Shown here piece by piece: positions 43,249 through 64,000 of a stretch of 64,000 bases of DNA; position 1 is the first letter of the stretch, and the number at the start of each line of letters is the position of its first letter. Made by a program: the position numbers and the translations under genes. The notes under the pieces were generated by a model. The model searched no databases. It was not told the DNA's origin and was given only the letters and a program-made list of their open reading frames with translations. Origin of the DNA: Nitrospirota bacterium (GTDB taxonomy: Bacteria; Nitrospirota; UBA9217); the NCBI GenBank assembly GCA_963818475.1, contig CAWFSF010000006.1, forward strand, positions 832,001 to 896,000. The letters are read 5' to 3'.

Positions 43249-43471
43249 GAGACATGAATATCTTCCGGATTGCCCTTCTTATTTCAGTTCACTGAAAAAA
43301 CCCTCTTGTCTCAGTAGACAGCAATTCTTGCACCCTCCCCTTAGTTCCCTCCCATCGAAGGAAGAGGAGCGTTAATCTTGCTGCGGGGTAGCTCATCATG
43401 AGCCTGTTCCGTTGCGATCCTTGTTCTGGGTCCCGGCCGCATTGCCGGTAATGGCCTTGTTGCGTGCGATC

Positions 43472-43536
43472 GCTACCAGGGAAAAATTCCGGAAAATTAG
43501 GGATTCCCCGGTTGTCATCCGGTCGGAAAGCTGTTA
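43472..43536 (+). promoter_or_regulatory. Second conserved upstream motif, copy 1
   Basis: GCTACCRGGGAAAAA-N5-RAAAATTAGGGATTCCCCGGTTG-N12-AAAGCTGTTA, colinear with 54286-54350. Confidence 0.65.
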
Positions 43537-44160: not shown

Positions 44161-44203
44161 TATTTTTAGGTAGTTGCCAAACATCCCACCAGGAGGCAGA
44201 AGA

Positions 44204-46325: not shown

Positions 46326-48659
46326 ATGAAGACCAAATTTTTCGTTGTGGCGATGCGCAAGGGCATCGTACTGGAAAGTCTAGTCGTTCTGCTTTTTTTG
46401 ATTGGATTGGCTTCTCAAAGTTCTGCCACTCCGCCGACGCCGCCGGCGCAAATCGTACTCCCTGAAGGACTGCTTGAAGAAGTCACTCTCACCGGAAAGG
46501 TTTTGCCGATACAGATCAAAATGAATGAAGAAATCATCGAGCTGCAAGTAGTTGCTACGCAACAGAAGCTGGTCCGCGGCAAAGGTGCTTTTGAACAGCC
46601 TGCGCCCGAAGTACTCATGGAAAAGAGCCAAAAGGCGATAAAAGAGAAGAAAGAAGATCATGAAGTTCCCTTAAAACTGGAACAGCCGGGAAATTATCTT
46701 ATCGATATCCGGATAAAGGGAAAAACCGCGAAAGGCGTAGGTTTTTCGGACCGACTCAACCGTTACGTTGTCATCAAAGAAAACGGCGTGGCAACGATGA
46801 TCAGCCCCGCAGAATTTCAGAGGCGTAACGAGAAGGCGCGAGAAAAGCTTTTTATGAATGAAAACGAGAAAAATACGAATAATCATCCCATTCGAGTACT
46901 TTTTGAGGACACAGTAAAGGTTCCGGAAGGCGTAAGAAAAACGATAAAGCCTTATGATGTTCCGAAAGACCGTCGCCTGGAAGTGCGTCCTGAGGGACCC
47001 TCTGAATTTTTACGCAAACATAGTATCGATCACAGTGCGACCAGCTGGACTTCAAAAGATCCAATCACGGTTAGTGGACGCCTAGTATTTCAGGACATCG
47101 ATGGCGTGGGGAAGCCGCTGGTGAACGTCGGCGTCTACCTCTGGGATTCAGATGTTTTCAGCGACGAATACCTGGGCGCTGTCGCCACCGATTGGGATGG
47201 CCGCTGGTCATTCACGGTGAACAACGATGACGGCTGGCTACAAGATGGCCGGGATATATATTATACGTTCAAACTCGAAAATACCCGTCTCAGTACGGGG
47301 AGTTGCGGCGGCGGGGCTTACGAGTGGAAATCGGCAGTTCATGACGACCTCTCTGAGGGGACGGTGTTAGATTTCGGAGACGAAACGGCCAGCACCAGCA
47401 TGGAGGCGCTACAGGTATGGAGTACGCTTAATCTGGCATGGAACCACGCCGCCGCAGTGGGTGGCTGGGACCCGGGGAGGATCGATTCGTGCTATCCTTC
47501 CTCCGGCACGTTTTATAACGGGACGGTAAACGTGCTCGGCTCCGACAATGATGGCCCCGATTCAATTACCCACGAATACGGTCATGGCCTCATGGCGCAT
47601 GCATATACGGACGGCGATCCTTCCCCGGGCGGGGCGCATGGTTTCGGCGATTGCAATCAGAATCGATCACTGTCGTGGTCTGAAGGGTGGGCGACCGCCT
47701 TTATGCTCTCCGTCCGGCCCGATAATCGCTATAACTGGCACGAAGGGGACGGAGGGCAGGAACTCGAATCGTTCCAGTCAACCTGTCACACGGGGGAGAC
47801 CAGCGAAGGATGGGTCGTCGCCGCGCTGCTCGATATGATGGACTCGAACGACGACGACAACGGCGGCAATCTGAATCGCGGTCGCAACGGCGCGCGGGAT
47901 CATAATACCGGCAACGAGGTTGCACTCGCAACAATCCTGCGGGACACCATGGTCGGCAGTAGTCATCACAACGACGTCCTGGAGTTTTGGAGCAGCCTAT
48001 CGGGAGAACTCGACGCTACCCATCGAAATCTGGCGCAGGAAATAATGAACTATGAATGGATGAGTGTTTTGATGCCTTCTTCATGCGTAGCGACGAAAGT
48101 TGCGACGGCGCGCGAAGCAAACCGGGAACCGATGCTTGCCGGACTGCGCAAATTTCGGGATCTCGCCCTCAAAAACTGGTCGCATGGACGCGAGCTGATC
48201 AATATGTACTATCGTAACAGTCCGGAAATAGCGATAACTCTCTTGAGCAATCCAAAGTTGATTCCGGCAGCGTTGAGCGTCATGAGGCATTTTTCAGAAA
48301 TCGGCACTACCGTTAGCAACCATCGCGCATATACTAAGAAGATGGTACAAAATCCGGAAGTGCTTCCTGGAGAAGTGATTGCATCTATCGAGGCCATTAC
48401 TCAGGTATTGTATAAGAACGGGAGTGCCGAATTGAAGGCCGACATAGATCGCGTGCGCAAGGATGTCGATGGTCTCAAGGGCGTGAGACTGCAGGAATTA
48501 CAGGAGCGCGTTACAAAGTTGAAAGCCGGGGAGCAAGGCAAAGGGCTTACCGCTATCAAGCAAAACAGCTTGACGCCAGCAAGCCAGAAAGCCTTAAAAG
48601 AATTGAAATTACAGACAATCATAAAGCAAGGGTTGCCGGAGATAAAGCCGGCACCGTAG
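46326..48659 (+). CDS. Exported zinc metalloprotease-like protein with C-terminal CFI-box-like domain
   Basis: Signal-like segment, THEYGHGLM and WSEGWA; CVATKVA...LRKFRD..L....GRELINMYYRNSP. Confidence 0.75.
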   Translation: MKTKFFVVAMRKGIVLESLVVLLFLIGLASQSSATPPTPPAQIVLPEGLLEEVTLTGKVLPIQIKMNEEIIELQVVATQQKLVRGKGAFEQPAPEVLMEKSQKAIKEKKEDHEVPLKLEQPGNYLIDIRIKGKTAKGVGFSDRLNRYVVIKENGVATMISPAEFQRRNEKAREKLFMNENEKNTNNHPIRVLFEDTVKVPEGVRKTIKPYDVPKDRRLEVRPEGPSEFLRKHSIDHSATSWTSKDPITVSGRLVFQDIDGVGKPLVNVGVYLWDSDVFSDEYLGAVATDWDGRWSFTVNNDDGWLQDGRDIYYTFKLENTRLSTGSCGGGAYEWKSAVHDDLSEGTVLDFGDETASTSMEALQVWSTLNLAWNHAAAVGGWDPGRIDSCYPSSGTFYNGTVNVLGSDNDGPDSITHEYGHGLMAHAYTDGDPSPGGAHGFGDCNQNRSLSWSEGWATAFMLSVRPDNRYNWHEGDGGQELESFQSTCHTGETSEGWVVAALLDMMDSNDDDNGGNLNRGRNGARDHNTGNEVALATILRDTMVGSSHHNDVLEFWSSLSGELDATHRNLAQEIMNYEWMSVLMPSSCVATKVATAREANREPMLAGLRKFRDLALKNWSHGRELINMYYRNSPEIAITLLSNPKLIPAALSVMRHFSEIGTTVSNHRAYTKKMVQNPEVLPGEVIASIEAITQVLYKNGSAELKADIDRVRKDVDGLKGVRLQELQERVTKLKAGEQGKGLTAIKQNSLTPASQKALKELKLQTIIKQGLPEIKPAP

Positions 48660-48774
48660 TTTCAATAATAGATATGAAGGCCAATGTATCAGACGTTTAT
48701 CATTCGAGATTTTGACTCTTGCCTTCCAATACAAATGGGCTTCGTAGCTACGTCTTTTGAGGGAGAACCGGTGT

Positions 48775-48829
48775 CATATAGGGTCACTTCTTTATCATTG
48801 TCATCATTGTCAAGATCAAAGAAGTGACC
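48775..48829. repeat. REP-like palindrome interrupted by the intron
   Basis: CATATAGGGTCACTTCTTT...AAAGAAGTGACC, completed by CCAATAGT at 50743. Confidence 0.85.
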
Positions 48830-50742
48830 GTTCGCAGTAACAACTGATTATCTCGCGGGTTCAAGTCCCGCCCAAGGAGTTGTCCGTACACCTTGGTAGC
48901 ACGAGGGAGCGGCGTCTGAGCAATCAGAGGTCGTGAGTTCCCAAACGGCAAAGCTACAGGCCGCAGCGAAAGCGAACCTACACGTAGCCTCGTAACTTAT
49001 TCGGAGATGCCGACCTTGTGGTCAAATGGGGAAGGCCGATGCGCGCTGATTCAGACAACGGAATCGATCTGTGCGATCTCCCGGGGTAGCAGGGGCGGCA
49101 TGCAGCGGAAGATAAGCAGTCCAGTGCTGGAGACCCCATACAGTGATGTTAGAGGAACATCAACCGGTGCGTATAAGGAAACGAAAACGCACTGGGCTGT
49201 ATCGGGAGTCGGAGGGGTCCATAGTATCGTTTGAAGGTATGGGACAACATAACCCTGCCCGAGAAAAGGGACCCTGCTTTGTTCACGCAACCGAAGGAGA
49301 GAGGATGAGGGGATTGCAGAGATGCTAACAACCCCAGATACAATCAGGACACTCCAGAGGAAGCTCTACCGTAAGGCCAAGCAAGAACCGGCCTACCGCT
49401 TTTACGCGCTCTACGACAAGATACACCGGGCCGACATCCTCAGTCACGCCTACCATCTTGTCAGGGCCAACAAAGGAAGCGCCGGCATCGACGGCGTCAC
49501 CTTCGAGGCCATAGAGACCGGAGAAGGGGTAATCGCCTTTTTGGCGGAGCTGCAAGAAGCACTGAAGAGCAAGACCTATGCACCAAACCCTGTAAAGCGC
49601 GTCATGATCCCCAAAGGAGACGGCACAGAGCGTCCCTTGGGAATCCCGACCATTAGGGACAGGGTGGCCCAGATGGCCGTAAAACTGGTCATCGAACCGA
49701 TATTTGAAGCGGATTTTATAGACACCTCATACGGATTCAGACCCAAGAAGTCGGCCCATGATGCAATCGAAGACATATCGTATGCCCTTAACTGCGGTTA
49801 TACGGAAGTCATCGACGCCGATGTGTCCAGGTACTTCGACACCATTCCCCATGCCAAACTCATGGCCGTGGTCGCCGAGCGCATCGTTGACAGTGCGATT
49901 CTGCACATTATCCAGATGTGGCTCAAGGCCCCGGTTATGGAAGTGGACAAGGACGGAACGAAGCGCAACATCGGCGGCGGCAAGGCAAACACCAAAGGAA
50001 CACCGCAGGGCGGTGTCATCTCGCCGCTCCTGGCCAATCTCTATCTGCACCTGTTAGATAGGATATGGCATAAGAAGAAGCTTCAGTATAGGCTCGAAGC
50101 GCGTCTTGTCCGGTATGCCGACGATTTTGTCGTGCTGTGCAGAAAGGGAACTGAGCAGCCGATGGCGGTTGTGCGCCGGGTGCTCGAACGACTGGGACTT
50201 GTACTCAATGAGAACAAGACCCGCATGGTGAACGCCAAGCAAGAAGGCTTCAACTTCCTTGGATTTGAACTTCGTATGGGGAAAAGTCGGAGAACGGGCA
50301 ACCTTTACCCCCTTATACAACCGTCACGAAAAGCCCTGAAGAAGATCAAAGACAGCGTTACCGCTCTTACACACAGGCGGATGACGCCGAAGCCGCTTAC
50401 TATGATAATCGAAGATATCAATACCGCCCTCCGGGGCTGGGTCGGGTACTTTCATTACCGCAATAGCAGCAAGGCGTTCAATCGTCTCAAGTTTCATGTG
50501 GAAGCGCGAGTGCGCACGCATCTGCGAAAGCGGCATAAGATCAAAAGCAGGGCAGCGGGGTTTACCAGGTTCACCAACAGGTCTTTGTACGAGAAGTATG
50601 GGCTCTATAAAGTGCCGACGACAGCGGGCTGGCTGAAGGCGCATGCCTTGCGGTGAAGAACATCGGAAAGCCGTGTGCGGGAAAACTGCATGCACGGTTT
50701 GATGAGGGAGGGCTGGTCAATACGACCAGCTCTCTACTCTAC
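48830..50742 (+). mobile_element. Group II intron
   Basis: 5' GTTCG; RT ORF; domain V AGCCGTGTGCGGGAAAACTGCATGCACGGTT; domain VI ending CTACTCTAC. Removing it restores a palindrome matching 46151-46210. Confidence 0.92.
49322..50656 (+). CDS. ltrA: Group II intron reverse transcriptase/maturase, no endonuclease domain
   Basis: RPLGIPTIRDR, SYGFRP, GTPQGGVISPLLAN, RYADD, FLG and LRGWVGYF motifs. Confidence 0.96.
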   Translation: MLTTPDTIRTLQRKLYRKAKQEPAYRFYALYDKIHRADILSHAYHLVRANKGSAGIDGVTFEAIETGEGVIAFLAELQEALKSKTYAPNPVKRVMIPKGDGTERPLGIPTIRDRVAQMAVKLVIEPIFEADFIDTSYGFRPKKSAHDAIEDISYALNCGYTEVIDADVSRYFDTIPHAKLMAVVAERIVDSAILHIIQMWLKAPVMEVDKDGTKRNIGGGKANTKGTPQGGVISPLLANLYLHLLDRIWHKKKLQYRLEARLVRYADDFVVLCRKGTEQPMAVVRRVLERLGLVLNENKTRMVNAKQEGFNFLGFELRMGKSRRTGNLYPLIQPSRKALKKIKDSVTALTHRRMTPKPLTMIIEDINTALRGWVGYFHYRNSSKAFNRLKFHVEARVRTHLRKRHKIKSRAAGFTRFTNRSLYEKYGLYKVPTTAGWLKAHALR

Positions 50743-51019
50743 CCAATAGTTCCCAAAGTTGGCCCGATGCACAAACTGGTGTTAGTGGGGCGTAGATCAG
50801 GAGAAGGGCAGCTGGAACATTATTTCCCCAGAGTGAACGCCTCATCCAGCTTGACCGAAGGTATCAAGAAATCCACGGATGATTTGCTTTCCAGCTATGC
50901 GATGGGTATTTGGTCAGCCGTACGGGGTCATAACTGTCGGCATGTCCTCCCATTATTCGTCAAACATCGCGTTTCCTCCTTTACCGATCGATGTATCTCC
51001 TTAAAACCCGAAAAAACAC

Positions 51020-51067
51020 CACCTGTCAGTTCTGACAGGTGACAAGTGCTAAAAATATTCATATAAT
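51020..51067 (+). promoter_or_regulatory. lux-box-like site 6 plus sigma70 promoter
   Basis: ACCTGTCAGTTCTGACAGGT (51021-51040), GTGACA, 17 bp, TATAAT (51062-51067). Confidence 0.8.
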
Positions 51068-51123
51068 ATTTAATATTGCACTAATCATCTTGATCTGTTC
51101 TCGCGGGCCCTCATTCAACGCGT

Positions 51124-51492
51124 ATGCGCACCTTACTCCTGGTAGAAGACAGTGCTCCTCTCCGCAAGACGCTCCAATCCATCCTGGAGGCGTCGGGTTT
51201 TAGCGTCATCGCGTGCAGCGACGGGCAGGTGGCCATCGAACAGGCGAGTCACCGGGACGTCGACGTAATGCTCGTCGATTACCGCATGCCCGGCCCCAGC
51301 GGGGCCGAGGTCACAAAAATCATACGAGAACGCCATCCTCGGGCCTGTATCATCGGGATGAGCCTTGAGGACCGGAAAAACAGCTTTCTTGCCGCAGGCG
51401 CAGACGACTTTTTGTTGAAGCCTTTCGCCATCGGGGATGTCATCAGGATCGCAGAAACCTGTGTTTTTCAACAGGAAGGCATCGGCAAGTAA
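51124..51492 (+). CDS. Single-domain response regulator
   Basis: LLVED, VDYRMP, AGADDFLLKPF. Confidence 0.88.
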   Translation: MRTLLLVEDSAPLRKTLQSILEASGFSVIACSDGQVAIEQASHRDVDVMLVDYRMPGPSGAEVTKIIRERHPRACIIGMSLEDRKNSFLAAGADDFLLKPFAIGDVIRIAETCVFQQEGIGK

Positions 51493-51546
51493 TCTTTTGG
51501 CGTGTCATTCACAAGTGATTAACCCTAACCGATAAGGAGGCAAGCC

Positions 51547-52752
51547 ATGGGAAAGAAAATCTTTTGTACGTTCGCCGTTCTGGTACTTGCATTTTGTTTT
51601 GTCCGTAGTTCTTATGGAGAATACACGCTCACATTAAATGTTCCCCTCTACGGACAGGACACGGGATACTATTGCGGTGCGGCAAGTTCGCAGATGATCA
51701 TGATGGGGTACCCGAGTCTTGCAAGCCGACAATGTTATACCCAGGATTTCATTTACAATGCCATTCAGGCAACTAAGCAGGACAACGGGTTTTATACCGA
51801 TCCTGATGGTTTGAGAGACACCCTCATGAATCTTAATCCACCGCCGGCGGCAGGACACTTTAGCCTATTCAGCAATGCAAACCGCGATACAATAATGCAT
51901 GACATGCTTTACTGGATGTCGATACGAAGCTACCCTTCAGCCGCGCTCATTAATGGCGGCGCGCATTGGGTCGTAATTACCGGGTTTCAGACAGACATTA
52001 ATCCGCAAACAGGAAACGCGGTTCTACAGTCCATAGATGTCAACGATCCCGCTCCGGCAGACATCGCCCCGCATGACAACCCCTGTACAACAGCGAATGA
52101 GGGCAATGAGGGTGGGACCATAAGACATGTCACTGGTGCATCCTGGTTCAGCAATGACTGGCAAAATCCCAACGGATACGGCACCAAATGGCTCAATCAG
52201 TATGTTGCCGTCGTAGAGCCGCCCTCGGTGAAAGGAAGCATAACCGCAAAACAGGAGGTAGAAAAAGGCGAGGTCATATCTGCCGAGGAGGCTTTGAAAC
52301 TGTCCCTACGGCATGTAAAAGAACGAAAACTTGCCGAAAGAAAGGAGTTCAGGTACCTCAGCAAGACCAGGCCGACAAGGGCGCTGCTCGTAAACAAACG
52401 ACACAAAGGATACTATATCGTCCCATTCGAGGACGAAAACAGGCGCGCGCCGCTGGCCGTCTTACTGAACGCATATACGGGAGATTTTCAGGAAATCGGC
52501 GCATTTCGCCACCCCATCGAATATCTTTCGCAGCAGGAGGCTGTCGACATCGCTGTGTGTTCCATTCGGAAGAAGCCCGCTCGACGACCTGTCGTGGAAC
52601 TAGAGTATGCCGTTTCGGAACAGATGAAGAGCCGCTATCGGCCGTTGTGGAAGGTGACAATGGCAGAGGAAAAGACCCCGATCATTCGTTACATTTCCCA
52701 GCTTGGAGAGGTATTTACTGAAGTTACTCCGGTACCGATCGGCGGCGACTAG
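51547..52752 (+). CDS. Exported C39-like (papain-fold) cysteine peptidase
   Basis: Signal peptide; VPLYGQ....CGAAS, HWVVITG and VNDP catalytic pattern. Confidence 0.75.
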   Translation: MGKKIFCTFAVLVLAFCFVRSSYGEYTLTLNVPLYGQDTGYYCGAASSQMIMMGYPSLASRQCYTQDFIYNAIQATKQDNGFYTDPDGLRDTLMNLNPPPAAGHFSLFSNANRDTIMHDMLYWMSIRSYPSAALINGGAHWVVITGFQTDINPQTGNAVLQSIDVNDPAPADIAPHDNPCTTANEGNEGGTIRHVTGASWFSNDWQNPNGYGTKWLNQYVAVVEPPSVKGSITAKQEVEKGEVISAEEALKLSLRHVKERKLAERKEFRYLSKTRPTRALLVNKRHKGYYIVPFEDENRRAPLAVLLNAYTGDFQEIGAFRHPIEYLSQQEAVDIAVCSIRKKPARRPVVELEYAVSEQMKSRYRPLWKVTMAEEKTPIIRYISQLGEVFTEVTPVPIGGD

Positions 52753-52888
52753 CCGGATAACCTCACTCGGGTCGCGGAAAGTAGGTTAGGCTGTCTGGCT
52801 CAGGCTATGTGGACAACCTCCAGATCGTTCTTCCAATCTAATGGACCCCTGTGCCGCCCAGATGCATTTTTTAAACGTGAGGTAAACC

Positions 52889-54121
52889 ATGGTTCCTGAT
52901 GAGAGCGAGAATGGGAGCGGCGTTTTGAACGCGATCGCCGATCCTGTATTGATCATAGACAAGGACTTCAAGCTCGTTTTTGCAAACAATGCGGCGCTCG
53001 ATCTTTGGAGCGTGAGCCGCGACCAGGTCCTCGGCAAAGAATGCCGCGACCTGTCCCCCCGCTGCATCCTGCCCTGTGCGCCGGATAACTGCCCGCATCA
53101 GGAGGTCTTCGCGACGAACAGGCCGCTGCAGGTCAAGCGTACATTCTGCTGCACGGACGGAAATGAGAAGATATTCAGCATGACTGCCTCGCCGTTTACG
53201 GACGCCGACGGCAAGGTCGTCCGGATGATCGAGGTGCTGCGCGATATTACCGAGGCGGAAAATGCGGCGAAGGCCCTGCAAAAGGGCGAGGCGCCCATCA
53301 CGAAAGTACGGATGCTCGAAGAGCAGCTGCTGCATGCCCATAAGATGGCGGCCATGGGCACGCTCGCCGGAGGCATTGCGCATGATTTCAACAATATCCT
53401 GTTCGCGATCATCGGCTATGGCAGCCTCATCCAGATGACGCTGAAGCCCGATGATCCCTCCCTGCCTCATCTGAAGGAAATGCTCGATGCCGGGGAACGG
53501 GCGGCAAGGCTTACGCGGGGGCTTCTTGCGTTCAGCAGGAAAGGGTCGATGGGTCTGAGGGCAGTGAAGGTCACCGACCTCATTGGGGACTTCAGAAATA
53601 TGCTCGAGCGGATCATCGGCGAAGACATCGAGTTTCGCGTCGCAGCCGACCCCGACCCGGGAGAGCTGATCGTTCAGGCCGATACGGGCCAGATCGAACA
53701 GGTGTTGATGAACCTTGCCGCGAACGCACGGGACGCCATGCCGCGCGGAGGGACGCTGACCATAGAAACGGAACGCGTGACCATGGACAGCGGCTTCATC
53801 GCGCTGCACGGCTTCGGCCAGCCGGGCAGCTATGCCGCGATCGTTGTCACGGACACGGGCACGGGAATGGCCGATGCGACCAGGAGGAGGATCTTTGAGC
53901 CCTACTTTACCACCAAGGAACCGGGAAAGGGCACCGGGCTCGGTCTCTCCATAGCGTTCGGCATCGTCAAGCAGCATAGTGGCTTTCTCGAATGTCAAAG
54001 CGAACCGGGGAAGGGGACGACGTTCACGATCTATCTCCCTGTTGCAGCCGCGGCTGAACAATCCTTCTCCCAATCAAAGTTGCGAGACACACGACAAAAG
54101 CGATGTAAAACTCTGATTTGA
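52889..54121 (+). CDS. Cytoplasmic PAS sensor histidine kinase
   Basis: Cys-rich PAS, LAGGIAHDFNN, MNLAANARDAM, FTTKEPGKGTGLGL. Confidence 0.92.
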   Translation: MVPDESENGSGVLNAIADPVLIIDKDFKLVFANNAALDLWSVSRDQVLGKECRDLSPRCILPCAPDNCPHQEVFATNRPLQVKRTFCCTDGNEKIFSMTASPFTDADGKVVRMIEVLRDITEAENAAKALQKGEAPITKVRMLEEQLLHAHKMAAMGTLAGGIAHDFNNILFAIIGYGSLIQMTLKPDDPSLPHLKEMLDAGERAARLTRGLLAFSRKGSMGLRAVKVTDLIGDFRNMLERIIGEDIEFRVAADPDPGELIVQADTGQIEQVLMNLAANARDAMPRGGTLTIETERVTMDSGFIALHGFGQPGSYAAIVVTDTGTGMADATRRRIFEPYFTTKEPGKGTGLGLSIAFGIVKQHSGFLECQSEPGKGTTFTIYLPVAAAAEQSFSQSKLRDTRQKRCKTLI

Positions 54122-54285
54122 GACGACTATATTTTTAAGGCGTGTGGATAACTTCCGGTTACTCCCTCTGATTTAAAAAAATCCTTCATTTTGTAAACAA
54201 ACATCAACTTATCAATGAATTACGTTGCGATGCCTCATTGGAATCCAGGCTGCATTGCCTATAAATAGGCTTGCTGCGTCTGATA

Positions 54286-54350
54286 GCTACCGGGGAAAAA
54301 GTGCGAAAAATTAGGGATTCCCCGGTTGCAAAGCGGTTCTAAAGCTGTTA
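54286..54350 (+). promoter_or_regulatory. Second conserved upstream motif, copy 2 (upstream of luxR)
   Basis: Colinear 65-bp match to 43472-43536. Confidence 0.65.
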
Positions 54351-54444
54351 TTGATACTAAAGACTGAAAACAGTTTGTTGCAGCGGAGATTCTCAAGCGA
54401 GTTGTTCGAAGCAGCCGAATATCCTTCAAGGGGGCAAATCCGAT

Positions 54445-54951
54445 ATGTACGATCTGTCGAAAAAAGACGCCAACAGCCTGATCGAGATCATTCATGAGAG
54501 CCTGAACTGCAATACTTTGCACGCATTCCACCGGCTTGTCCAAAAACTTCGGCAACTGACGCCGGATAATCTCGGGATCGACTTTTCGCACAATGCGGGA
54601 GAGCATGCATCTAATGAAATCGAGCAAATCTTCCCTGGTAAAAATATCGCTGGTCCCTTCAGCCGGGCCGAAATCATAATGAATTATGCCTTGCCGCATC
54701 TTCGCCAGGCCCTTTCCCGAGTTACTAAGGAAGAAAGTCAAAAACCAACAACGATGCTCTCTTGCAGGGAGAGGGAGGTACTGCGATGGATGAGCGAAGG
54801 GAAGTGCACCTGGGACATATCCCGGATCCTGCGGATCACGGAACGGACCGTATACTATCATAGCCAGAACATCATGCATAAGCTCGAGGCGACAAGCCGT
54901 TCCCACGCGGTTTCCATCGCCCTTAAACGGGGGATCATCGAGCTTCATTGA
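54445..54951 (+). CDS. LuxR-family regulator with quorum-sensing-type HTH and shortened N-terminal domain
   Basis: REREVLRWMSEGKCTWDISRILRITERTVYYH...KL; 168 aa with no Trp or DP motif in the N-terminal region. Confidence 0.88.
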   Translation: MYDLSKKDANSLIEIIHESLNCNTLHAFHRLVQKLRQLTPDNLGIDFSHNAGEHASNEIEQIFPGKNIAGPFSRAEIIMNYALPHLRQALSRVTKEESQKPTTMLSCREREVLRWMSEGKCTWDISRILRITERTVYYHSQNIMHKLEATSRSHAVSIALKRGIIELH

Positions 54952-55233
54952 GCAACCAAACGTCAACAGTAGTGGAGCAACAACTGCACGGTCAAATTGA
55001 TCGTGCCTTTATTCGCATTATTATGCATTGGAATGCAATTTTATGATAATACCCTAAAAATACCCTGACAATATTTTTATTCATAAAAACAATGCGTTTA
55101 TCATTATTTCATAGCTGATGCTGTATGAATTTAAAAATTTAGGTTGATAAATATATAAAGTGTTGCTATAGTCGCGCACTAGTACGAAAGTATTAGCAAG
55201 TAGAATACGAATTAGACCTTGTCCCATCTTCGC

Positions 55234-55306
55234 AAGCTCGAGGCAACAAGCCGATCTCACGCAGTTGCCATCGGCCTTCAAGTGGGGGATCATCGAGTCT
55301 CATTGA
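55234..55306 (+). pseudogene. Degenerate duplicate of the luxR 3' end
   Basis: AAGCTCGAGGCAACAAGCCGATCTCACGC...GGGGATCATCGAG...CATTGA parallels 54880-54951. Confidence 0.8.
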
Positions 55307-55364
55307 AAATTTGATTATTACGTAATAAGCCGCATCGACTTTTGAGCTCTCTAACGGAGGTACT

Positions 55365-56846
55365 ATGGCCTGCAAGCTGTTCCCTTATCCGTCAGCTCGT
55401 TCTGGATCCGCGCTGATCCTGATGACCCTCATTACTGTCTTATTGGTGGCCGCACTATCCGGTTGCAGCGGCGGCAAAGGCGGCTCCATGCCGTCTCCTT
55501 CGAATGTCGGCGGAGGCTTCACGCTTGTTGCTTCCGGCGGTACATTGGATGACGGGTCAGGGGTGAACGGACTTGCGGTACTGGTGACCCTGCGGGACGA
55601 AAGCGGGAACGGACCGGCAATCCCCTGGACTCTTTCGATCACCGGGCCGGGTTTCGCTGCTCCGCTTTCGATATCTTATGATGATGGTTCCCCGTCCAGT
55701 TATATGGCCTGGTGGTGGGACAGCTTTGATCCGCAGCCCGGCAGGTATACAGCTACAGCCACGAACGGTGCCACCGTTCTTACCTATGCTTTTGAGATCA
55801 ACACCACAACCATCAATCTATCGCAGCCCACGCTGAATAAATCCGGCAGTATAATTTCCTGGAACACGGTACCCGGCGCGGGTTCCTATTATTATGAAAT
55901 GACAGACGGATCACACGCGCTTCCGATTACATCCGGTTATTTTGAATCTGACCCTCTTGTCAGCCAATATTCTTTTTCTATCCCGACCTTGGAAAATGGC
56001 AGCTATCTCGTTTCAGTCTATGCCCTGACCAATAACCGTTTTACTCTTTCTTCCGATAGTGCTTCCTGGCCTTCTCTTCCCGTGCAAAACAACGATTCTC
56101 TTGCCACGATCGATTTTGTACAAGGAGGAACGGGCTCGGGCTATGTTCTGGATGCTCGCGGAGGTGTGTTGTATGAAGGTCTGTATTCCGCGGGATCGGA
56201 GACGCCCGCTGATTATTACGGAATTGTAATCTGGACTTCGATCGTTACGACCTCTACGCCGTCGACAGCGCCGGCGGGAGACTGGAATCTGACCGTAACA
56301 GGTCCGGGAATCACGACGGCTCTGACGTTCTCCTATCCGCGGACGGATTCTCACTACATCTGGTGGGATTTCGGCACGATTCCCGCTCCGGGCACCTACA
56401 CGGTCACGGCAACGCCTGCTGCAGGCGGTTCCTCGTTAATCCAAACGTTCACGGTTCCTTCTCCGACAGCAAAATTGCCGGTTGCAACCGGACTGAGCGC
56501 AACCCCCTCAAACGGCGGCGGGGCAGCGCTAAATTGGAATACCGTTGCAGGCGCGAATTCCTATTACGTAAACATTTGGACGTGCGTGGGGACCGGAAGT
56601 GTCAATACTGAGACTGGTTGTACAAATGAGGGAACGTATTCGGAAATTGCCGGCGGCTGGAGCAATTCAACGTCCCTCACGATCTCGAACGGCAGCTTGA
56701 CAAAAGGCCTTGTGTATGACCTGTACGTGACCGCTTCGGAACTCGATATGATGGACATGAATTCCGTGCCGGTTCCCGTCAGCCCCGGATCGCAGGTCAA
56801 TATGTCGGATACCACGTTCACCTATACGACCTTTACCGCGTTATAA
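55365..56846 (+). CDS. Surface lipoprotein with two internally repeated beta-rich/FN3-like modules
   Basis: LSGC lipobox; duplicated W.L.ITGPG...WWD....PG.YT.TAT and WNTV.GA.SYY motifs. Confidence 0.75.
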   Translation: MACKLFPYPSARSGSALILMTLITVLLVAALSGCSGGKGGSMPSPSNVGGGFTLVASGGTLDDGSGVNGLAVLVTLRDESGNGPAIPWTLSITGPGFAAPLSISYDDGSPSSYMAWWWDSFDPQPGRYTATATNGATVLTYAFEINTTTINLSQPTLNKSGSIISWNTVPGAGSYYYEMTDGSHALPITSGYFESDPLVSQYSFSIPTLENGSYLVSVYALTNNRFTLSSDSASWPSLPVQNNDSLATIDFVQGGTGSGYVLDARGGVLYEGLYSAGSETPADYYGIVIWTSIVTTSTPSTAPAGDWNLTVTGPGITTALTFSYPRTDSHYIWWDFGTIPAPGTYTVTATPAAGGSSLIQTFTVPSPTAKLPVATGLSATPSNGGGAALNWNTVAGANSYYVNIWTCVGTGSVNTETGCTNEGTYSEIAGGWSNSTSLTISNGSLTKGLVYDLYVTASELDMMDMNSVPVPVSPGSQVNMSDTTFTYTTFTAL

Positions 56847-56915
56847 GACTCTTCCCTTCCCCTTCAAAGGAGGGGTTAGGGGAGGGGGCGTACCAAAATT
56901 CAAGGAGGACCCGGA

Positions 56916-58574
56916 ATGAAAGCGTCGATAGCAAAAATACTTCTCCTTCTTCTGCTGGTATCTTTAACAGCGTGCGGAGGCGGAGGAGGCGGGCTTTCTG
57001 GAGGCGGCGGCTCAGAGGATACTATCGCACCTTCTGTTCCCACCGGTTTGGTTGCGACGGCGAATTCCACGAGCCAAATTACCCTTACATGGAACGCCTC
57101 CACTGATGATGTGGGTGTTGCCGGGTATGACGTTGAGAATGGAATCTTCGTTACAAACACGAGCGAGGTACTTACAAATCTTGCGCCCAGTACACAGTAC
57201 TGCTTTAGCGTAAAAGCACGCGACGCTGCTTATAATTATTCCTCCTCCAGCGCACAAGTCTGTGCCAGCACGCTCAATCCCACCGGCTGGAGTCCCGCGA
57301 TCCAACTCGGCGAACGGAGGGATTCCTTGGATTACGACCTTTATTCCCCGCGCGCTGCCTTGAATGACAGTAATGCGGGTATCGCTGTCTGGGATGACAG
57401 CTATAGGTACTTCCCGTACATAGGACGCATAGTAGCGAACGTCTACAGGAATGGAAGCTGGGGAACGCCTGTCATTATTTCCCGTGATCTGCCGAGCTCG
57501 CACACGCCCAGTCTGGCAATGAATGCGAACGGGAATGGCGCGGCTGTCTGGTCGATGGCGACCAGCACTACCACGGACATAGGGATTGGGGCCAGCCTCT
57601 ATACAGCTGCGACAAACTCCTGGTCAGCCCCGGTCAGGATATGCGATCCGTTCACCGGTTATTTTTCAGCCCCCAAAGCTGCCATGGATTCATTAGGCAA
57701 TGTCGTTGCTATCTGGCTGTATGAGGGGGACGTATGGACAAGCCGCTATAGCGGCAGTGCATGGAGCAGCCCCGAGCTGCTGAGCAGCGGGACGAACTAC
57801 GTGTATTCAGCGGAGCTGAAGATCGGCGGCGATAATAATGCATTCGTGGTCTATTCCGAGGAGACCAGCCCCGGCTTATCTAGTTCAAACATTTTTGCAC
57901 GAATTTACACGGCATCAACCGCCACGTGGGGCACGTCTTCGACCCTGATCGGCAAACCTACCGTCACAACCGATGACGCAGCCAATCCCGTTATTTCAGT
58001 CTATGCGAACGGCGATGCGGTCGTGGCATGGGAAATGACTCATTACAACGGTTCCGCCTATGAATACTCCATCGCGGCCAATTTTTACAGCAGCCTTCTC
58101 TCCTGGCAGACAGCGACGAACGTGACGGCCAGTACAACTGCGTACAAGGAGTTTCCCGCTGTTGCCATCGATGGAACGGGCAATGCTTTTGTCGGGTGGC
58201 AGGAGAACTTATTCCCCGACAGGCAGGGATGGATGAGCAGGTATGATTCCGGTGCAAAAACGTGGAGCCCTGCCGAGCGGTTCGATACAGATGACATATA
58301 TTACGATATCTCGGATATCGCGATCGATGTCGACGGAAACGGAAACGCCCTCTTCGCCTATCGCCAGGGACGGGTGCACACGCGCTGGTACATGACAGCA
58401 TCGGGATGGGCTGCTACGGCATGGACACCGGTCCCGTCCGACTTTGATAATGCTCCCGGATTCAGTCTCGATGTCAACAACACGGGCAATGCTCTCGTGG
58501 TTACGCGTGAGATGGTCAGGGACTACGTGGGGACGTCATGGACGCCTTTCGCAAACCATTATACGAAACCGTAA
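56916..58574 (+). CDS. Lipoprotein with FN3 domain and repeated beta-propeller-like blades
   Basis: LTAC lipobox, Gly linker, DTIAPSVPTGL...WNASTDDVGVAGY, repeated D..GNA..VW. Confidence 0.8.
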   Translation: MKASIAKILLLLLLVSLTACGGGGGGLSGGGGSEDTIAPSVPTGLVATANSTSQITLTWNASTDDVGVAGYDVENGIFVTNTSEVLTNLAPSTQYCFSVKARDAAYNYSSSSAQVCASTLNPTGWSPAIQLGERRDSLDYDLYSPRAALNDSNAGIAVWDDSYRYFPYIGRIVANVYRNGSWGTPVIISRDLPSSHTPSLAMNANGNGAAVWSMATSTTTDIGIGASLYTAATNSWSAPVRICDPFTGYFSAPKAAMDSLGNVVAIWLYEGDVWTSRYSGSAWSSPELLSSGTNYVYSAELKIGGDNNAFVVYSEETSPGLSSSNIFARIYTASTATWGTSSTLIGKPTVTTDDAANPVISVYANGDAVVAWEMTHYNGSAYEYSIAANFYSSLLSWQTATNVTASTTAYKEFPAVAIDGTGNAFVGWQENLFPDRQGWMSRYDSGAKTWSPAERFDTDDIYYDISDIAIDVDGNGNALFAYRQGRVHTRWYMTASGWAATAWTPVPSDFDNAPGFSLDVNNTGNALVVTREMVRDYVGTSWTPFANHYTKP

Positions 58575-58600
58575 AACGGACCAAACAATTGGAGACCGCC

Positions 58601-60064
58601 ATGCAAACTAACAGATCTCGCTGGATCAAGTGGACGGAATTGTTCTTTGTCATGCTCCTTCTGGCAGCCTGCAGCAGCGGAGGCGGAAGCCAGAGCGCAA
58701 GCGACAGCGGAGGATCGTCAGACAAACTGAGAAGTGACGGCACGTGGACCCAGGTCAGCGGGGCGACTACTGCTGATCAGCTCGGGACCTACGGCACGAA
58801 GAGTGTACCGGCATCCTCCAACATGCCCGGCGCCCGCTTTTCCTCGATGTCGTGGACCGATGGGAGCGGAAATTTGTGGCTCTTCGGCGGCGGATATTTC
58901 GATTCCGAAAGCAAGCTTCACTATCTGAACGACCTCTGGAAATTCGATCGCGGCAGCCGCGAGTGGACATGGGTGAGCGGGTCCGATACCCCGGACCAAT
59001 GGGGGACCTACGGCACAAAGGGCACTGCCACTGTAGACAATGTCCCGGGCGGGCGCTATGCAGCCGTCTCCTGGATCGACGGGACCGGCAACCTTTGGCT
59101 GTTCGGCGGCACCGGGTTCGACGCATCCGGCAACGATGACGCTCTCAACGATCTTTGGAAATTCGATCCGGTCACCCGCAACTGGACCTGGGTGAGCGGT
59201 TCGGACACGGTCGGCCAGATGGGAACCTACGGCGACAAAGGCGTGGCGGCTCCGACGAATGTACCGGGCGCCCGTGACCAGGCAGTCTCCGGGATCGATG
59301 CGAACGGGATTTTCTGGCTCTTCGGCGGTTTCGGCTACGATTCGAGCACGTTCGGCGGGCATCTCAATGACCTCTGGAAGTTCGATCCAACGAGCGGCAA
59401 CTGGACCTGGGTTAACGGAGCAAAGACCGGCGACCAGCGGGGAAATTACGGCACAAAAGGCACGGCGGACAGCGCCAATGTCCCGGGAGGACGTGATGGG
59501 GCCTTCTTCTGGATCGACAGCAGCGGCACTCTGTGGCTTTTCGGCGGGTATGGCCTCGACTCCAGCCCGATCGGCACGCCGGGTCCTCTGAATGACCTTT
59601 GGAAATTTGACGGCACCAACTGGACGTGGGTGAGCGGGGGGAATCTCATCTCGCAATATGGCTCTTACGGATCGAGAGGCTTCTCATCTGCTTCGAATGT
59701 TCCCGGATCGCGCAATGGCGGAGTATCCTGGATCGACGGTAACGGCAGCCTGTGGCTTTTCGGCGGATACGGTTACGCGAGCCGGCCTAGTGGCGGGGCC
59801 CTGAACGATCTGTGGAAATTCAATCCGGTCAGCGGCGAATGGATCTGGGTGAGCGGAGCCAGCTCCGGCAATCAGTCCGGTTCAGGCACGGTGCCCGGAT
59901 CGCGCATGTACACGCCTGCGTCCTGGATCGATGCGAACGGAAACTTATGGCTGTTCGGAGGATATGGTTTCGACTCCGCCGGCACACTTGGCTGCCTTAA
60001 CGATCTGTGGCGCGCTGCTGTCACTACTCACTGGGTGTGGTGGGCCGCTCCTTCCGTCCTTTGA
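58601..60064 (+). CDS. Kelch-repeat lipoprotein
   Basis: LAAC lipobox; six repeats of PG.R....WID..GNLWLFGG...LNDLW. Confidence 0.9.
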   Translation: MQTNRSRWIKWTELFFVMLLLAACSSGGGSQSASDSGGSSDKLRSDGTWTQVSGATTADQLGTYGTKSVPASSNMPGARFSSMSWTDGSGNLWLFGGGYFDSESKLHYLNDLWKFDRGSREWTWVSGSDTPDQWGTYGTKGTATVDNVPGGRYAAVSWIDGTGNLWLFGGTGFDASGNDDALNDLWKFDPVTRNWTWVSGSDTVGQMGTYGDKGVAAPTNVPGARDQAVSGIDANGIFWLFGGFGYDSSTFGGHLNDLWKFDPTSGNWTWVNGAKTGDQRGNYGTKGTADSANVPGGRDGAFFWIDSSGTLWLFGGYGLDSSPIGTPGPLNDLWKFDGTNWTWVSGGNLISQYGSYGSRGFSSASNVPGSRNGGVSWIDGNGSLWLFGGYGYASRPSGGALNDLWKFNPVSGEWIWVSGASSGNQSGSGTVPGSRMYTPASWIDANGNLWLFGGYGFDSAGTLGCLNDLWRAAVTTHWVWWAAPSVL

Positions 60065-60175
60065 TCCTATTGAAGTTGCTGAGATCGGTGAGTAGCTAAA
60101 GGAATTTACTAGAAATATTTTTTTTGAATTTTTGAAGAGTTTGGGATGTAACGGGCTACCTTAAGGAGGCAGGCT

Positions 60176-63100
60176 ATGTTCAGGCACGGAAAATCGAGAA
60201 TACTTGCGGTGGCAGCAGTTGCGGTCATGAGCGCGGTAATCTCCGTCACGGTCTTGGGTTCATCACCCTCGCCGGTGACGGTCAAGCTCACGCCTTCCCT
60301 GGTGTCGGTCGACACCTCGGCGTTGGCGCCGAAGCTGGCCCAGGCCGAAATGGACGCAGTCTGGCATCTCTTCGATCGGGACACGGACGCCGCCTACATC
60401 CCGATGGAAACGGCCCGGGTAACGGTAAACCTGCCGCAGTCGTCTGCCCTAAGCCAAGTCCGTGTTTATGGCGCGTCCTCGTATCAACTCAACCTGTACC
60501 GTGATAATAACGGCGCATGGGAGCCTGTGCCCTCCCTGACCGGCGTTGATCTCACGGTTCTGGGTGCGGCCTGGAACAGGTTGAATATCACGGAACCCTT
60601 TTCCACATCCCAGCTTTTGTTCGAATTCGTTCCGCAGGGGAACGTAACCGCCGGCCTGCGTGAGGTCGAGATCTGGGGTCCTGAGGCAGCGTCCGGGGAC
60701 AAGAGTTGGGAGTATGTGACGCTCGAAGGTATCCGTACACCTCAGGACATGGTCAATATACTAGCCCGCCCGGCTTCCCATATTCTGGAGTTCTCGGCCG
60801 CTCCCTCTGAATTGTCCGTACCCGAAGGAGGAACATCAGCCGTCGCCATCGGTCTCATTCAGAATCCCGCGTTGTTCAAACGCGCCTATATCCTCTATGA
60901 CGGCTACAATCTGGTCAGTTCGGTGAGCATCCAGCGCAGGATCAACAGCTTATCGTGGACCGGCGGTTTCGCGATTTCTCAGCCCGCGGACACCGTGCCT
61001 TCCTGGTCCTCTTACCTTGAAGAAATAAACCCGGCCTGGCTCGTTCAAGGAGAAAACAGGATCGAATTCCGGACAGCGAGCGGCACAGCAACCATCCGCG
61101 GTCTCAGGCTCATTGTCGAAACCGACAGCGGATGGAACCTCGTTTCAGCAGTAAGTGCAGCGGCTGTATATGACGGAGACACTTCGACTGCGTATACCAT
61201 TGCCGCGTCAGCAACCGACCCGTCGATTCAACTAAGTTTCGAACGCACGGTCCAGCCTGACATCCTGAAACTTCATAGCGCAGGTCCGATGAATCTGACC
61301 GCAGGACTGCAGTATCTGAACGGAGCAACGTGGCAGGATGTGAAAGCAGGCTGGCAGCTCAATCTTTCTACTCTCAAAGCCGGCTGGAACGATATAACTA
61401 TTCCCGGCAAGGTGACGACGCAGGCCCTTCGGTTGGTGTTTAATACAGCAAGCCTCAAGATAAAGCCCGGTGTGGGCCTCGGTGCGATCAACGAAGTGCG
61501 GGTGTCCGCGGCCCCTGTCGGCCCTGTCCCGGCTACTCCCCGGATCGTGATCAGCTATCCGCGCAACGGAGAATATTTCGGACGGACCGCATATATCCAA
61601 GGCTTTGCAACGCCCGCAGTTGATACGGCCGGTAATTCCGCCCGGTGCAGTGTCGAAGGCAAGGACGGCCAGCGAACGGTGCCGGACGGGTCTTTCAGCC
61701 TCTCCCTTACCAAGGACGAAACGCATTTCTACGACCAGGCGGACAACGATCCGTGGCAGCCGGTGGCGCAGTCGACATACGACGGCCAGATAGGCGCCAT
61801 GCAGAACATAGTCCTGAATAAAAATTCAGGGGTCCAGACAGATCCCGACCCAAACGGCGAGAGCAGGAAAAACGCGCCCTTTACCGATAACAGGGACCAT
61901 CACACGGAAAAAGTATCGCCCGGCCAGGCAAAGAAGATCCAGTACGGGGGCGTGACCCTCGACATTCCGCAGGGCGCAGTTGATCAGGACACGGACATTA
62001 CGATCGTTCCGTTGAATGAAACGGATCTTGCCCATTACGATCCGGGCATGATCAACGTCACCTATCCGGCAGCCGGTTACCGCTTCCTGCCTCACGGCAT
62101 GAAGTTCAAGAAGCCGATCAACATTTCGTTCGGATACGCGAAGCAGCTCTTTGTGGCAGGCCAGACCGACAACGACGTCAACATGTATTATTACGACGAG
62201 ACGCTGCTGCGATGGCAGCAGCTGAACCGCGTAAAAGCAGACCCGGCTACGTCCCAGGTCACGGCCCTGTCCGATCATTTTACCGACATCATCAACTCCA
62301 CCCTCGTGGTGCCCGAGCATCCGCAGGCATTGTCGTTCAACCCGAACTCGATCAAGGACATCAAGGCGGCCGATCCGACCGCCAATGTGAACCTCATCGA
62401 ACCGCCCCAGGCAAACAGCAGAGGCACGGCCAACCTGAGCTACCCCATCGAGGTGCCGCAGGGACGCAATAAGCTTCAGCCCAACCTTGCCGTTCAGTAC
62501 AACTCCTCGGGCGGAAACGGCTGGATGGGCATGGGCTGGGACCTCCCGATGCAGGCGATCACGGTCGATACCCGCTGGGGCGTCCCGCGCTACAGCTCGA
62601 GCAAGGAGACCGAGACCTATACAATCGACGGGGAACAGCTTTCGCCGGCCGCCCACCGCGGGCCCTTTGTAGATCGTGTCCTCGCGCAAAGAATTTTCCA
62701 TACCCGGGTGGAAGGTCAGTTCCGCAAGATCATCCGGCACGGGAGCTCTCCGTCCAGTTACTGGTGGGAGGTCATCGACAAGAACGGCACGCGCTATCTT
62801 TACGGCGGAACGAATGGTCCGACAACTGACGCCACTCTTAGAGACGAAAACGAAAATATTTTTATGTGGACACTCCGTGAAGTCCGGGACACGAACAACA
62901 ACTTCATACGCTATTATTATGCTCACGTGAAAGACCCCGGTTTTCCGGGCGGTCTCCCGGGGGAGAATCTCTACCTCCAGGGCATAACCTATACCGGCAA
63001 CGGGACAAAGGAAGGCCCCTACACCGTCACCTTCACGCGCGACCAGACGCGGATAGACAAACAGAGTGATGCGCGCGGCGGGTTCAAGCGAGTGACCGGC

Positions 63101-64000
63101 GATCTTCTGACCAAGATCGAAATCTATCTCGGCGGCACATACCAGGACGGCGAGGTGAAGGGCGGCAACTTCATCCGGAGCTACGAATTCGACTACAATC
63201 ACAACGCCTATGGCGACGGCAGTGAGGGCACGGCTTTTTATAAAACGCTCCTGACATCGATCAGTCAGTACGGAGCGAAGCACGGTCTCTTCAATAAGCA
63301 CGAGTTCACCTATTATGATGACGCGCGTAAACTCGATGGAACGTACAAGGGTTTTGCATCGACCGGATGGGATGCCAGGGGAAGCGGTACTATCACTGCC
63401 GGAGGGATTCCCGGGACCTGGGGCGCTGCGAGCGCGCTCGGCGGTGACACGAGCAACGGCGGGGGAGGTCATTTTCATCTTGGCCTCGGTATCGATACAG
63501 ACACAAGCACTAAAAATGTGACTATTGGTTTCAAAATCGGCTTCAACCAGACCGAAGGCGATGCGTTGGTCGCGATGGTGGACATAGACGGCGACGGTCT
63601 GCCCGACAAGGTGTACAACAATGGCGGCTATTTTTATCAGAAGAATATGTCCGGTCCGCATGGACCCGGCGCCAAGTTCGGTCCTCCTGTCTCGATCGGA
63701 ATCCCGGGTATCTCCCATCAGAGTGTGACCTCCACGACGTGGGGTGCTGAACTCTATATCTATGTGCCGATGATGTACGATCAGAACAGGGCCGAGACCG
63801 AGAACGATACTTACTTAATGGATGTGAACGGAGATGGACTTATCGACGTGGTGAAGGGGGGCATGGTTTACTTCAATCACATCGTGAATGAAGTTCCCGT
63901 TTTCGAATGGAACAGCGTGGCAACGCCGGTTCCGATCGGCAAAAGCGTGATCGACACAAATGGCCTCCTGCCGGACCGCAGTGCCGAGGAAGCCGAGCGT
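60176..64000 (+). CDS. Large exported SpvB/TcdB-type (RHS-like) protein, 3' end beyond the window
   Basis: Absent from the ORF track because no stop occurs in the window. AAGGAGG RBS, signal anchor, ZU5-like segment (GVTLDIPQGAV), SpvB-like PQGRNKLQPNLAVQYNSSGGNGWMGMGW in the start frame, and FG-GAP-like DIDGDGLPD and DVNGDGLID. Confidence 0.88.
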   Translation, partial: MFRHGKSRILAVAAVAVMSAVISVTVLGSSPSPVTVKLTPSLVSVDTSALAPKLAQAEMDAVWHLFDRDTDAAYIPMETARVTVNLPQSSALSQVRVYGASSYQLNLYRDNNGAWEPVPSLTGVDLTVLGAAWNRLNITEPFSTSQLLFEFVPQGNVTAGLREVEIWGPEAASGDKSWEYVTLEGIRTPQDMVNILARPASHILEFSAAPSELSVPEGGTSAVAIGLIQNPALFKRAYILYDGYNLVSSVSIQRRINSLSWTGGFAISQPADTVPSWSSYLEEINPAWLVQGENRIEFRTASGTATIRGLRLIVETDSGWNLVSAVSAAAVYDGDTSTAYTIAASATDPSIQLSFERTVQPDILKLHSAGPMNLTAGLQYLNGATWQDVKAGWQLNLSTLKAGWNDITIPGKVTTQALRLVFNTASLKIKPGVGLGAINEVRVSAAPVGPVPATPRIVISYPRNGEYFGRTAYIQGFATPAVDTAGNSARCSVEGKDGQRTVPDGSFSLSLTKDETHFYDQADNDPWQPVAQSTYDGQIGAMQNIVLNKNSGVQTDPDPNGESRKNAPFTDNRDHHTEKVSPGQAKKIQYGGVTLDIPQGAVDQDTDITIVPLNETDLAHYDPGMINVTYPAAGYRFLPHGMKFKKPINISFGYAKQLFVAGQTDNDVNMYYYDETLLRWQQLNRVKADPATSQVTALSDHFTDIINSTLVVPEHPQALSFNPNSIKDIKAADPTANVNLIEPPQANSRGTANLSYPIEVPQGRNKLQPNLAVQYNSSGGNGWMGMGWDLPMQAITVDTRWGVPRYSSSKETETYTIDGEQLSPAAHRGPFVDRVLAQRIFHTRVEGQFRKIIRHGSSPSSYWWEVIDKNGTRYLYGGTNGPTTDATLRDENENIFMWTLREVRDTNNNFIRYYYAHVKDPGFPGGLPGENLYLQGITYTGNGTKEGPYTVTFTRDQTRIDKQSDARGGFKRVTGDLLTKIEIYLGGTYQDGEVKGGNFIRSYEFDYNHNAYGDGSEGTAFYKTLLTSISQYGAKHGLFNKHEFTYYDDARKLDGTYKGFASTGWDARGSGTITAGGIPGTWGAASALGGDTSNGGGGHFHLGLGIDTDTSTKNVTIGFKIGFNQTEGDALVAMVDIDGDGLPDKVYNNGGYFYQKNMSGPHGPGAKFGPPVSIGIPGISHQSVTSTTWGAELYIYVPMMYDQNRAETENDTYLMDVNGDGLIDVVKGGMVYFNHIVNEVPVFEWNSVATPVPIGKSVIDTNGLLPDRSAEEAER

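Follow-up and report, generated by a model that had tools for sequence, protein, structure and literature searches.

A LuxR-family regulator of a Nitrospirota bacterium, descended from an acyl-homoserine-lactone receptor and with the ligand pocket lost

Ligand-independent LuxR-type proteins and the reduced regulator gene

Ligand-independent regulation by LuxR-type proteins has been described for engineered and natural members of the family. The accessible part of PMC2845093, citing Choi and Greenberg 1991, describes V. fischeri LuxR deletions of residues 2–156 and 2–162 that were built as constitutively active, autoinducer-independent proteins. For the class E ligand-independent solos MalR, CarR and CepR2, regulation is thought to be set by the amount of the regulator (PMC10134790, accessible part), and the same portion of that article lists the key residues of the ligand pocket and the helix-turn-helix (HTH) domain in TraR numbering, G113 included. 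The definition of a LuxR solo in the available text of PMC4338825 requires an autoinducer-binding domain. The interface that joins the two ligand-binding domains of SdiA involves mainly helices 1 and 8 (PMC4453555). The words 'truncat', 'deletion' and 'shorter' do not occur in the accessible text of PMC10134790 on solos, and no description of a natural internally deleted acyl-homoserine-lactone (AHL) receptor was found in the open-access literature searched.

The DNA analysed here, a 64,000-nt stretch from a Nitrospirota bacterium (the window), contains an intact gene for a 168-residue LuxR-family regulator (Table 1). ATG is the sole start codon within the open frame, and 11 nt upstream of it is the end of a GGGGG run, a G-rich ribosome-binding stretch. 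The only Pfam domain of the protein is the GerE/LuxR-type HTH, accompanied by a sub-threshold HTH_23 match. No match to the Autoind_bind domain (PF03472) was obtained at E ≤ 0.01, and none to the Response_reg receiver (PF00072). The first-pass annotation had described the gene as a LuxR solo with the autoinducer pocket removed and had quoted three strings, all of which are present in the protein: LSKKDA..LIEIIH.SL at residues 4–19, PHLRQALSR at residues 84–92 and EGKCTWDISRILRITERTVYYH at residues 118–139. It had also set the 168 residues against the roughly 240–250 of AHL receptors, a difference borne out by the intact frame and by full-length relatives of ~250 residues. The label 'LuxR solo' fits in that no LuxI was detected in the genome, but the autoinducer-binding domain that the definition requires is not detectable by Pfam, so 'ex-receptor' is the better name.

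Table 1. Coordinates of the regulator gene, its segments and the adjoining elements in the window
Feature	Position	Strand	Remarks
Single-domain response-regulator receiver	51124..51492	+	Syntenic neighbour; PF00072
PAS sensor histidine kinase	52889..54121	+	Syntenic, directly upstream; PAS, HisKA and HATPase_c domains
Conserved upstream non-coding region, presumed promoter/regulatory	54122..54444	+	70–73% identical over 208–325 nt
87-nt repeated element	54264..54350	+	Inside the upstream region; inverted repeat CTACCGGGGAA-N18-TTCCCCGGT
Reduced LuxR-family regulator gene, 168 residues	54445..54951	+	ORF list, stop codon included; GerE domain; orthologs of 166–210 residues
Residues 1–40, first two helices of the former autoinducer-binding domain	54445..54564	+	Model helices 6–20 and 25–38; aligns to the N-terminus of L016–L022
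Residues 41–72, scar of the deleted core	54565..54660	+	~80 columns of L016/L017 gapped here
Residues 73–103, last ligand-domain helix and linker	54661..54753	+	Model helix 74–98; aligns to CviR 157–190
Residues 104–168, GerE/LuxR-type four-helix HTH DNA-binding domain	54754..54948	+	PF00196 at residues 104–159, E 1.5e-19
Terminator-like hairpin	54986..55006	+	9-pair stem, T-rich tail; 35 nt after the stop; consensus pattern match only
Decayed partial second gene copy	55209..55306	+	Direct repeats D1–D3, 82–83% identical, one 1-nt indel

Descent from LuxI-paired receptors and loss of the ligand pocket

A homolog search of 5.8 billion protein clusters with a cut-off of E ≤ 1e-3 yielded 15 homologs among 40 candidates. 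The homologs comprise five proteins of 168 residues, including the window's own, one of 166 residues, six of 199–210 residues, a 114-residue fragment, a 163-residue protein (P0015) that has lost the HTH after a frame change and gives no Pfam match, and a 256-residue protein with both Autoind_bind (E 1.2e-24) and GerE. Common to all of them are the helix region at the N-terminus and everything from SR.E.I...PHL..A onward, and the length between these parts varies. The centre has been eroded through at least three distinct deletion boundaries, each deletion being in frame in the alignment: the window type, that of L014, in which other residues are kept, and that of L013, in which ..DIPG is joined directly to KNSPG... 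P0010 and P0011 are of intermediate length, and the 210-residue form retains traces of the lost strands in an SLDI and a G.IFPGK segment of the alignment. When the N-terminal 100 residues were compared with 1.84 billion representatives, five matches were obtained at E ≤ 1e-3 and no other family sharing the N-terminal remnant was found among those representatives, so the remnant is confined to a small family.

Codons 55 and 56 of the window gene flank the deletion junction (nt 54609/54610). The deletion is not unique to this assembly, given that four other 168-residue proteins, 75–80% identical to the window protein, have the same junction in other metagenome records. A read contig of run X3 (93–94% alike, with 17 other letters and no gap) also covers the junction; the read contigs of runs X1–X4 cover only parts of the stretch. 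The recurrence of the junction in other records together with the X3 contig indicates that it is not an assembly artefact. Within the order, 31 of 64 genomes contain a match at E ≤ 1e-8, and the reduced form occurs only in the window genome (G000) and in G010, whose protein has 210 residues. These are two of the six genomes of the genus, the other four of which are 65–92% complete.

Eight proteins of ~250 residues (L016–L022 and L024) served as the full-length set, and L023, L025 and a 277-residue group were set aside as response-regulator-type by sequence. The nearest full-length relatives have Autoind_bind and GerE and belong to the same GTDB family as the window genome. The sister proteins score PF03472 at E 1e-16 to 1e-25, and their best solved relative is CviR (E 9e-33 for L016). 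A convergent LuxI-type gene lies beside L016, L017, L019 and L022 (in G062, G051, G038 and G050, respectively), and these four proteins retain W, Y, D, P and W at the spacing of TraR W57, Y61, D70, P71 and W85. The pocket columns were placed by spacing, and the sixth residue, G113, has no certain placement. All five placeable columns are gaps in the window protein, in keeping with the absence of the pocket residues noted in the first-pass annotation, and in each of the six 166–168-residue forms. In the 199–210-residue forms, four of the positions are gapped and the fifth is mostly R. The HTH residues E109, L113 and G119 of the window protein correspond, with the same spacing, to TraR E178, L182 and G188, and this E/L/G set is kept in all 20 aligned rows but for one I in place of L.

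Aligned with its full-length relatives, the window protein has shared ends and a gapped centre; residues 73–103 align to their SRTE.IL..PHLHQA segment as well as to CviR. In a tree of 20 rows built from 154 of 272 columns, with the deletion columns left out, the 12 reduced forms (166–168 and 199–210 residues) make up one clade (support 100/100) on a long stem (0.9 changes per column). The reduced clade adjoins L016 and then L017 (83/74 and 88/97), and all eight full-length rows are on the other side of its branch. The 166–168-residue and 199–210-residue forms are interspersed within the clade, and the tree does not fix the order of the deletions. Because the complete domain is the general state of the family and of all other branches of the tree, loss is the economical reading of the direction of change. 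The comparison at sequence level thus shows common descent with the LuxI-paired AHL receptors. The alignment, the tree, the LuxI-paired sisters and the residue mapping agree in supporting the earlier proposal that the outer helices are kept in one frame and that the pocket was lost internally.

In the order, PF03472 matches were obtained in 9 of the 64 genomes, Autoind_synth (PF00765) exceeded its cut-off in four of the 64, and neither was found in the six genomes of the genus. These four genomes, with AHL-type LuxI/LuxR pairs in an uncultured Nitrospirae-type lineage, add to a sparse record. A six-frame search of the window genome gave no match to PF03472. PF00765 had no match there either; the same search matched no control genome, yet it matched the four genomes of the order. 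A tblastn search with three related LuxI proteins found no LuxI relic in the window genome, the best hit (E 0.06) lying elsewhere in the genome. Since the genome is 91% complete, the absence of LuxI and Autoind_bind is likely, not proven.

Truncated TraR-like inhibitors are known in Agrobacterium and are not known to contain a DNA-binding domain. The reduced regulator could likewise act as a dominant-negative protein or an anti-activator by pairing with a full-length LuxR-type receptor in mixed dimers via its interface helices, and the retained helices are those of the ligand-domain interface of SdiA (PMC4453555). We consider this very improbable, as no Autoind_bind partner was found in its own genome or in the six genus genomes. 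Furthermore, the DNA-binding domain is kept in the reduced protein under the strongest constraint, unlike in the inhibitors of Agrobacterium.

Retained helices, selection and the DNA around the gene

The 168-residue protein was modelled as a monomer with AlphaFold2 (mean pLDDT 78). The model contains the two N-terminal helices, whose region has pLDDT values of 79–90, a long helix that precedes the HTH, and a confident four-helix HTH (pLDDT >90). Scar residues 42–69 are predicted to be disordered (pLDDT <50), and residues 43–111 of the 210-residue form are modelled with no strands, also at pLDDT <50. The HTH superposes on that of GerE (1fse) with a VIA-align Z value of 13.7 and an rmsd of 1.0 Å over 67 residues. 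Foldseek and VIA-align matched the C-terminal 90–108 residues to CviR, RhlR and SdiA and the HTH to GerE-type domains, and the HTH matches the solved CviR (E 2.7e-17), RhlR, SdiA, LasR and TraR. The structure prediction suggested in the first-pass annotation is confident for the retained helices and the HTH, but the pTM of the model is 0.45 and the N-terminal packing is not shown, with superposition of the whole model on RhlR, QscR, SdiA and CviR giving 8–14 Å rmsd over 120–150 residues. A homodimer prediction with two copies, made without control runs, scored 0.27 against a mark of 0.42, which speaks neither for nor against a dimer. The retained helices correspond to helix 1 and, as read, to the last helix (8) of SdiA, and by this analogy a role in dimerisation is proposed for them.

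Selection on the gene was estimated as pairwise Nei–Gojobori dN/dS for five coding sequences (10 pairs, dS 0.24–1.1), with values that are noisy over regions of 30–65 codons. The ratio is 0.06–0.17 for the HTH (residues 104–168) and 0.10–0.40 for the last helix and linker (residues 73–103). For the first two helices (residues 1–40), it is 0.10–0.32 in nine of the ten pairs and 0.62 in one pair with few changes. The junction residues 41–72 have ratios of 0.34–0.86. By these rough figures, the regulator gene is maintained, its outer helices are of importance and the scar is nearly free to vary. Orthologs that share the deletion, with purifying selection on the retained parts, are what the first-pass annotation had suggested looking for. 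The selection on the retained helices is the only observation in favour of a new, minimal site at which these three helices would sense a small molecule. Such sensing is extremely unlikely, given that the whole β-sheet and five of the five mappable pocket residues are gone and that the junction is predicted to be disordered and is poorly constrained.

The same data bear on the reading that a quorum-sensing system was lost and that the gene is its functionless relic, on the way to becoming a pseudogene. Both LuxI and the pocket are missing, erosion of the centre has produced differing boundaries, and the distribution within the genus is patchy. Two relatives look broken, P0015 by its frame change and L013 (1–473) by a frame-shifted 3' end; these changes may be sequencing errors or real decay, and the gene is thus not kept everywhere. 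The decayed partial copy, 260 nt downstream of the regulator, also fits a relic; in it, a part resembling codons 80–88 is joined to one resembling the final 24 codons and the stop. No partial second copy was found beside the orthologs in L007, L010, L011 and L014. However, twelve distinct intact frames persist over a synonymous divergence of up to ~1.1, with dN/dS of 0.06–0.17 in the HTH and 0.1–0.4 in the retained helices, all deletions are in frame, and all five loci compared keep the start codon along with its G-rich ribosome-binding stretch. We therefore regard a relic as quite improbable. A low-depth 139-nt contig of run X3 joins position 54944 to 55300 and skips 355 nt (52 letters on the shorter side, likeness threshold 85); it may represent a related strain in which the gene is present once and the next gene follows at a much shorter distance.

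The non-coding region upstream of the regulator was compared with those of L010, L011, L007 and L014. Several blocks are invariant in all five sequences, and the region has diverged less than the regulator's synonymous sites, which lends indirect support to control at the transcriptional level. Neither a sigma-54 promoter nor a lux-box-like 20-bp palindrome could be fitted to the upstream region when it was read by eye. The 87-nt element within it has two further copies in the genome (window 43450–43536 and G000:C6:281022-281109), which are 78–80% identical. Its copies precede the regulator, a PilZ gene (that at 43450–43536) and, at the third site, a GGDEF sensor gene; PAS kinase genes in L011 and L007 also have the element ahead of them. 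Judged from this arrangement, it may be a common control element of signalling genes. The element was rejected as a regulator-specific site, as its 17-nt core (≤1 mismatch) occurs in six genomes, of two other genera, without the reduced regulator.

A consensus scan found promoter-like sites downstream of the regulator. A direct repeat, TACCC[TC]-N5-TACCC[TC], with a spacer that is mostly [TG]AAA[AT], is located at window 55050–55066, and the genome contains 38 such repeats against one for the reversed control. Most of them are ~9–12 nt upstream of TTGACA-like and TATAAT-like hexamers, and the repeat has the look of a site that some factor uses upstream of promoters throughout the genome. A 22-nt stretch with the repeat is identical downstream of the 166-residue ortholog in L014, and L017 has a similar site ~160 nt before its full-length luxR. 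The downstream TACCCT-N5-TACCCY repeat was rejected as a dedicated site, since its 38 copies are spread genome-wide, mostly before -35-like hexamers. Both conserved DNA motifs are thus non-specific to the regulator, and no target site is assignable.

The genes upstream of the regulator encode two-component proteins (Table 1). In L011, L007 and L012, the gene immediately before the ortholog encodes a PAS kinase that is homologous to that of the window and carries a fused receiver, and in L010 a 66%-identical receiver lies directly upstream of a 168-residue ortholog. L007 is identical to L012 and L015, and with these three counted as one locus, either a PAS kinase or a stand-alone receiver is located directly upstream on the same strand at four of five distinct loci (the window, L011, L007 and L010). 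Control by a protein partner from these two-component genes is the main rival to control by expression level. The three-helix remnant would then be a docking surface, and its partner, most plausibly the PAS kinase or the receiver, would switch DNA binding. The purifying selection on the remnant helices fits such a role, and LuxR-type proteins are described as targets of protein–protein interaction in the accessible part of a 2026 review (PMC13043044). Partner control is nevertheless unlikely: the loci are closely related and the synteny is perhaps just inherited, a UvrD/NERD helicase gene occupies the upstream position in L014 instead, and neither a phospho-acceptor nor a receiver fold is known in the remnant. 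That the remnant is a working module which both dimerises the HTH and docks the PAS kinase or receiver is a little less likely again.

Other features of the window were recorded beside the locus. An Rfam search over 48000–58000 returned only a group II intron and nothing at the regulator gene. The intron (48862–50742; group-II-D1D4-6 at 48862–49096 and Intron_gpII at 50666–50742) encloses a reverse transcriptase/maturase ORF at 49322–50656. An IS110-family transposase (36694–37986), a PIN_12 protein (38214–39254) and a TIR-domain protein (39299–40360) lie together, and the gene at 44174–46069 encodes a trypsin-like peptidase fused to a non-specific endonuclease; the stretches 36694–40360 and 44174–46069 may be mobile or defence-related. 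Downstream of the regulator, a same-strand gene run (55365–64000) encodes predicted secreted or surface proteins, among them a 493-residue protein with a lipoprotein-like N-terminus, a 552-residue fn3/BNR-like protein and a 508-residue Kelch-repeat protein. The last member, of more than 1274 residues and with an SpvB domain, runs off the window. The first and last genes of the run have homologs in the same order in L011. These surface-protein genes are candidate targets of the regulator.

Mode of action and comparison with known systems

The regulator, a pocket-less LuxR-family factor derived from an AHL receptor, probably acts via its expression level. Its ancestor was a CviR-like, LuxI-paired AHL receptor from which the β-sheet core and all pocket residues were lost by internal deletion, and the reduced protein would no longer be able to bind AHL. 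DNA binding would occur through the intact HTH, probably as a dimer, and the first helices and the last ligand-domain helix may have been retained for dimerisation or stability. The output would be set by the amount of protein made under the conserved upstream control region, a mode like that of engineered N-terminally deleted LuxR and of the ligand-independent LuxR solos. In more general terms, the protein is most likely a DNA-binding regulator without the ability to bind AHL, and either its expression or a partner protein would determine how active it is. The first-pass annotation had suggested a ligand-independent activator controlled at the transcriptional level; the protein may be a ligand-independent regulator of this kind, acting as an activator or as a repressor.

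Here, a natural lineage has made and kept a change comparable to the ligand-domain deletions made in LuxR in the laboratory (PMC2845093). The intermediates are at hand, from full-length LuxI-paired receptors through forms of 199–210 residues with a disordered centre to forms of 166–168 residues. Across the series, the sheet and the pocket are dispensable after loss of the signal, whereas the first helices, the last helix and the HTH are not. Such ex-receptors would be overlooked in surveys in which a protein must have both domains to count as a LuxR solo. The two candidate roles of the retained helices, dimerisation and the binding of a partner, are experimentally approachable. If the remnant were a docking module, a quorum-sensing receptor would have been rewired as a two-component output, and the series of 256, 210 and 168 residues would record a stepwise change of input.

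Among the solved structures, CviR of Chromobacterium violaceum is the best match, with window residues 65–160 aligned to CviR 157–253 (E 2.7e-17). The protein shares with CviR, RhlR, SdiA, LasR and TraR the last ligand-domain helix, the linker, the four-helix HTH and its E/L/G residues. It differs from AHL receptors in the absence of ~80 residues of the α-β-α ligand domain, including the positions of W57, Y61, D70, P71 and W85, and from the LuxI-paired receptors in that no LuxI was found in the window genome. The best NCBIfam match is EpsA (TIGR03020, XrtB/PEP-CTERM-associated), which covers residues 74–159, that is, the last helix, the linker and the HTH. Membership in the EpsA family was rejected at 73.1 bits against a cut-off of 170, as the match spans profile positions 151–245 of 247 and leaves the N-terminal part unmatched, and the tree places the window protein with the LuxI-paired receptors instead. 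The HTH fold is also that of GerE and of the NarL/FixJ type. GerE consists of the HTH alone (74 residues), whereas the window protein has an additional 100-residue remnant of a sensor domain. Regulators of the NarL/FixJ type carry a receiver, in place of which the window protein has the remnant of a different sensor domain; the other GerE proteins checked in the genome do have a receiver (window 26834–27565 by Pfam, and the 277-residue L002 by sequence likeness).

The class E solos resemble the reduced regulator in having no cognate synthase, but, according to PMC10134790, their autoinducer-binding domain is complete and has all six key residues, whereas the window protein has lost the core of that domain. 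Engineered LuxR, as described in the accessible part of PMC2845093, is the expected functional analogue, with the ligand-binding function removed and the HTH kept. In contrast to the engineered deletions, that of the window protein is natural, heritable and conserved in a clade, and it is internal, leaving the two initial helices of the ligand domain and its final helix in place under constraint.
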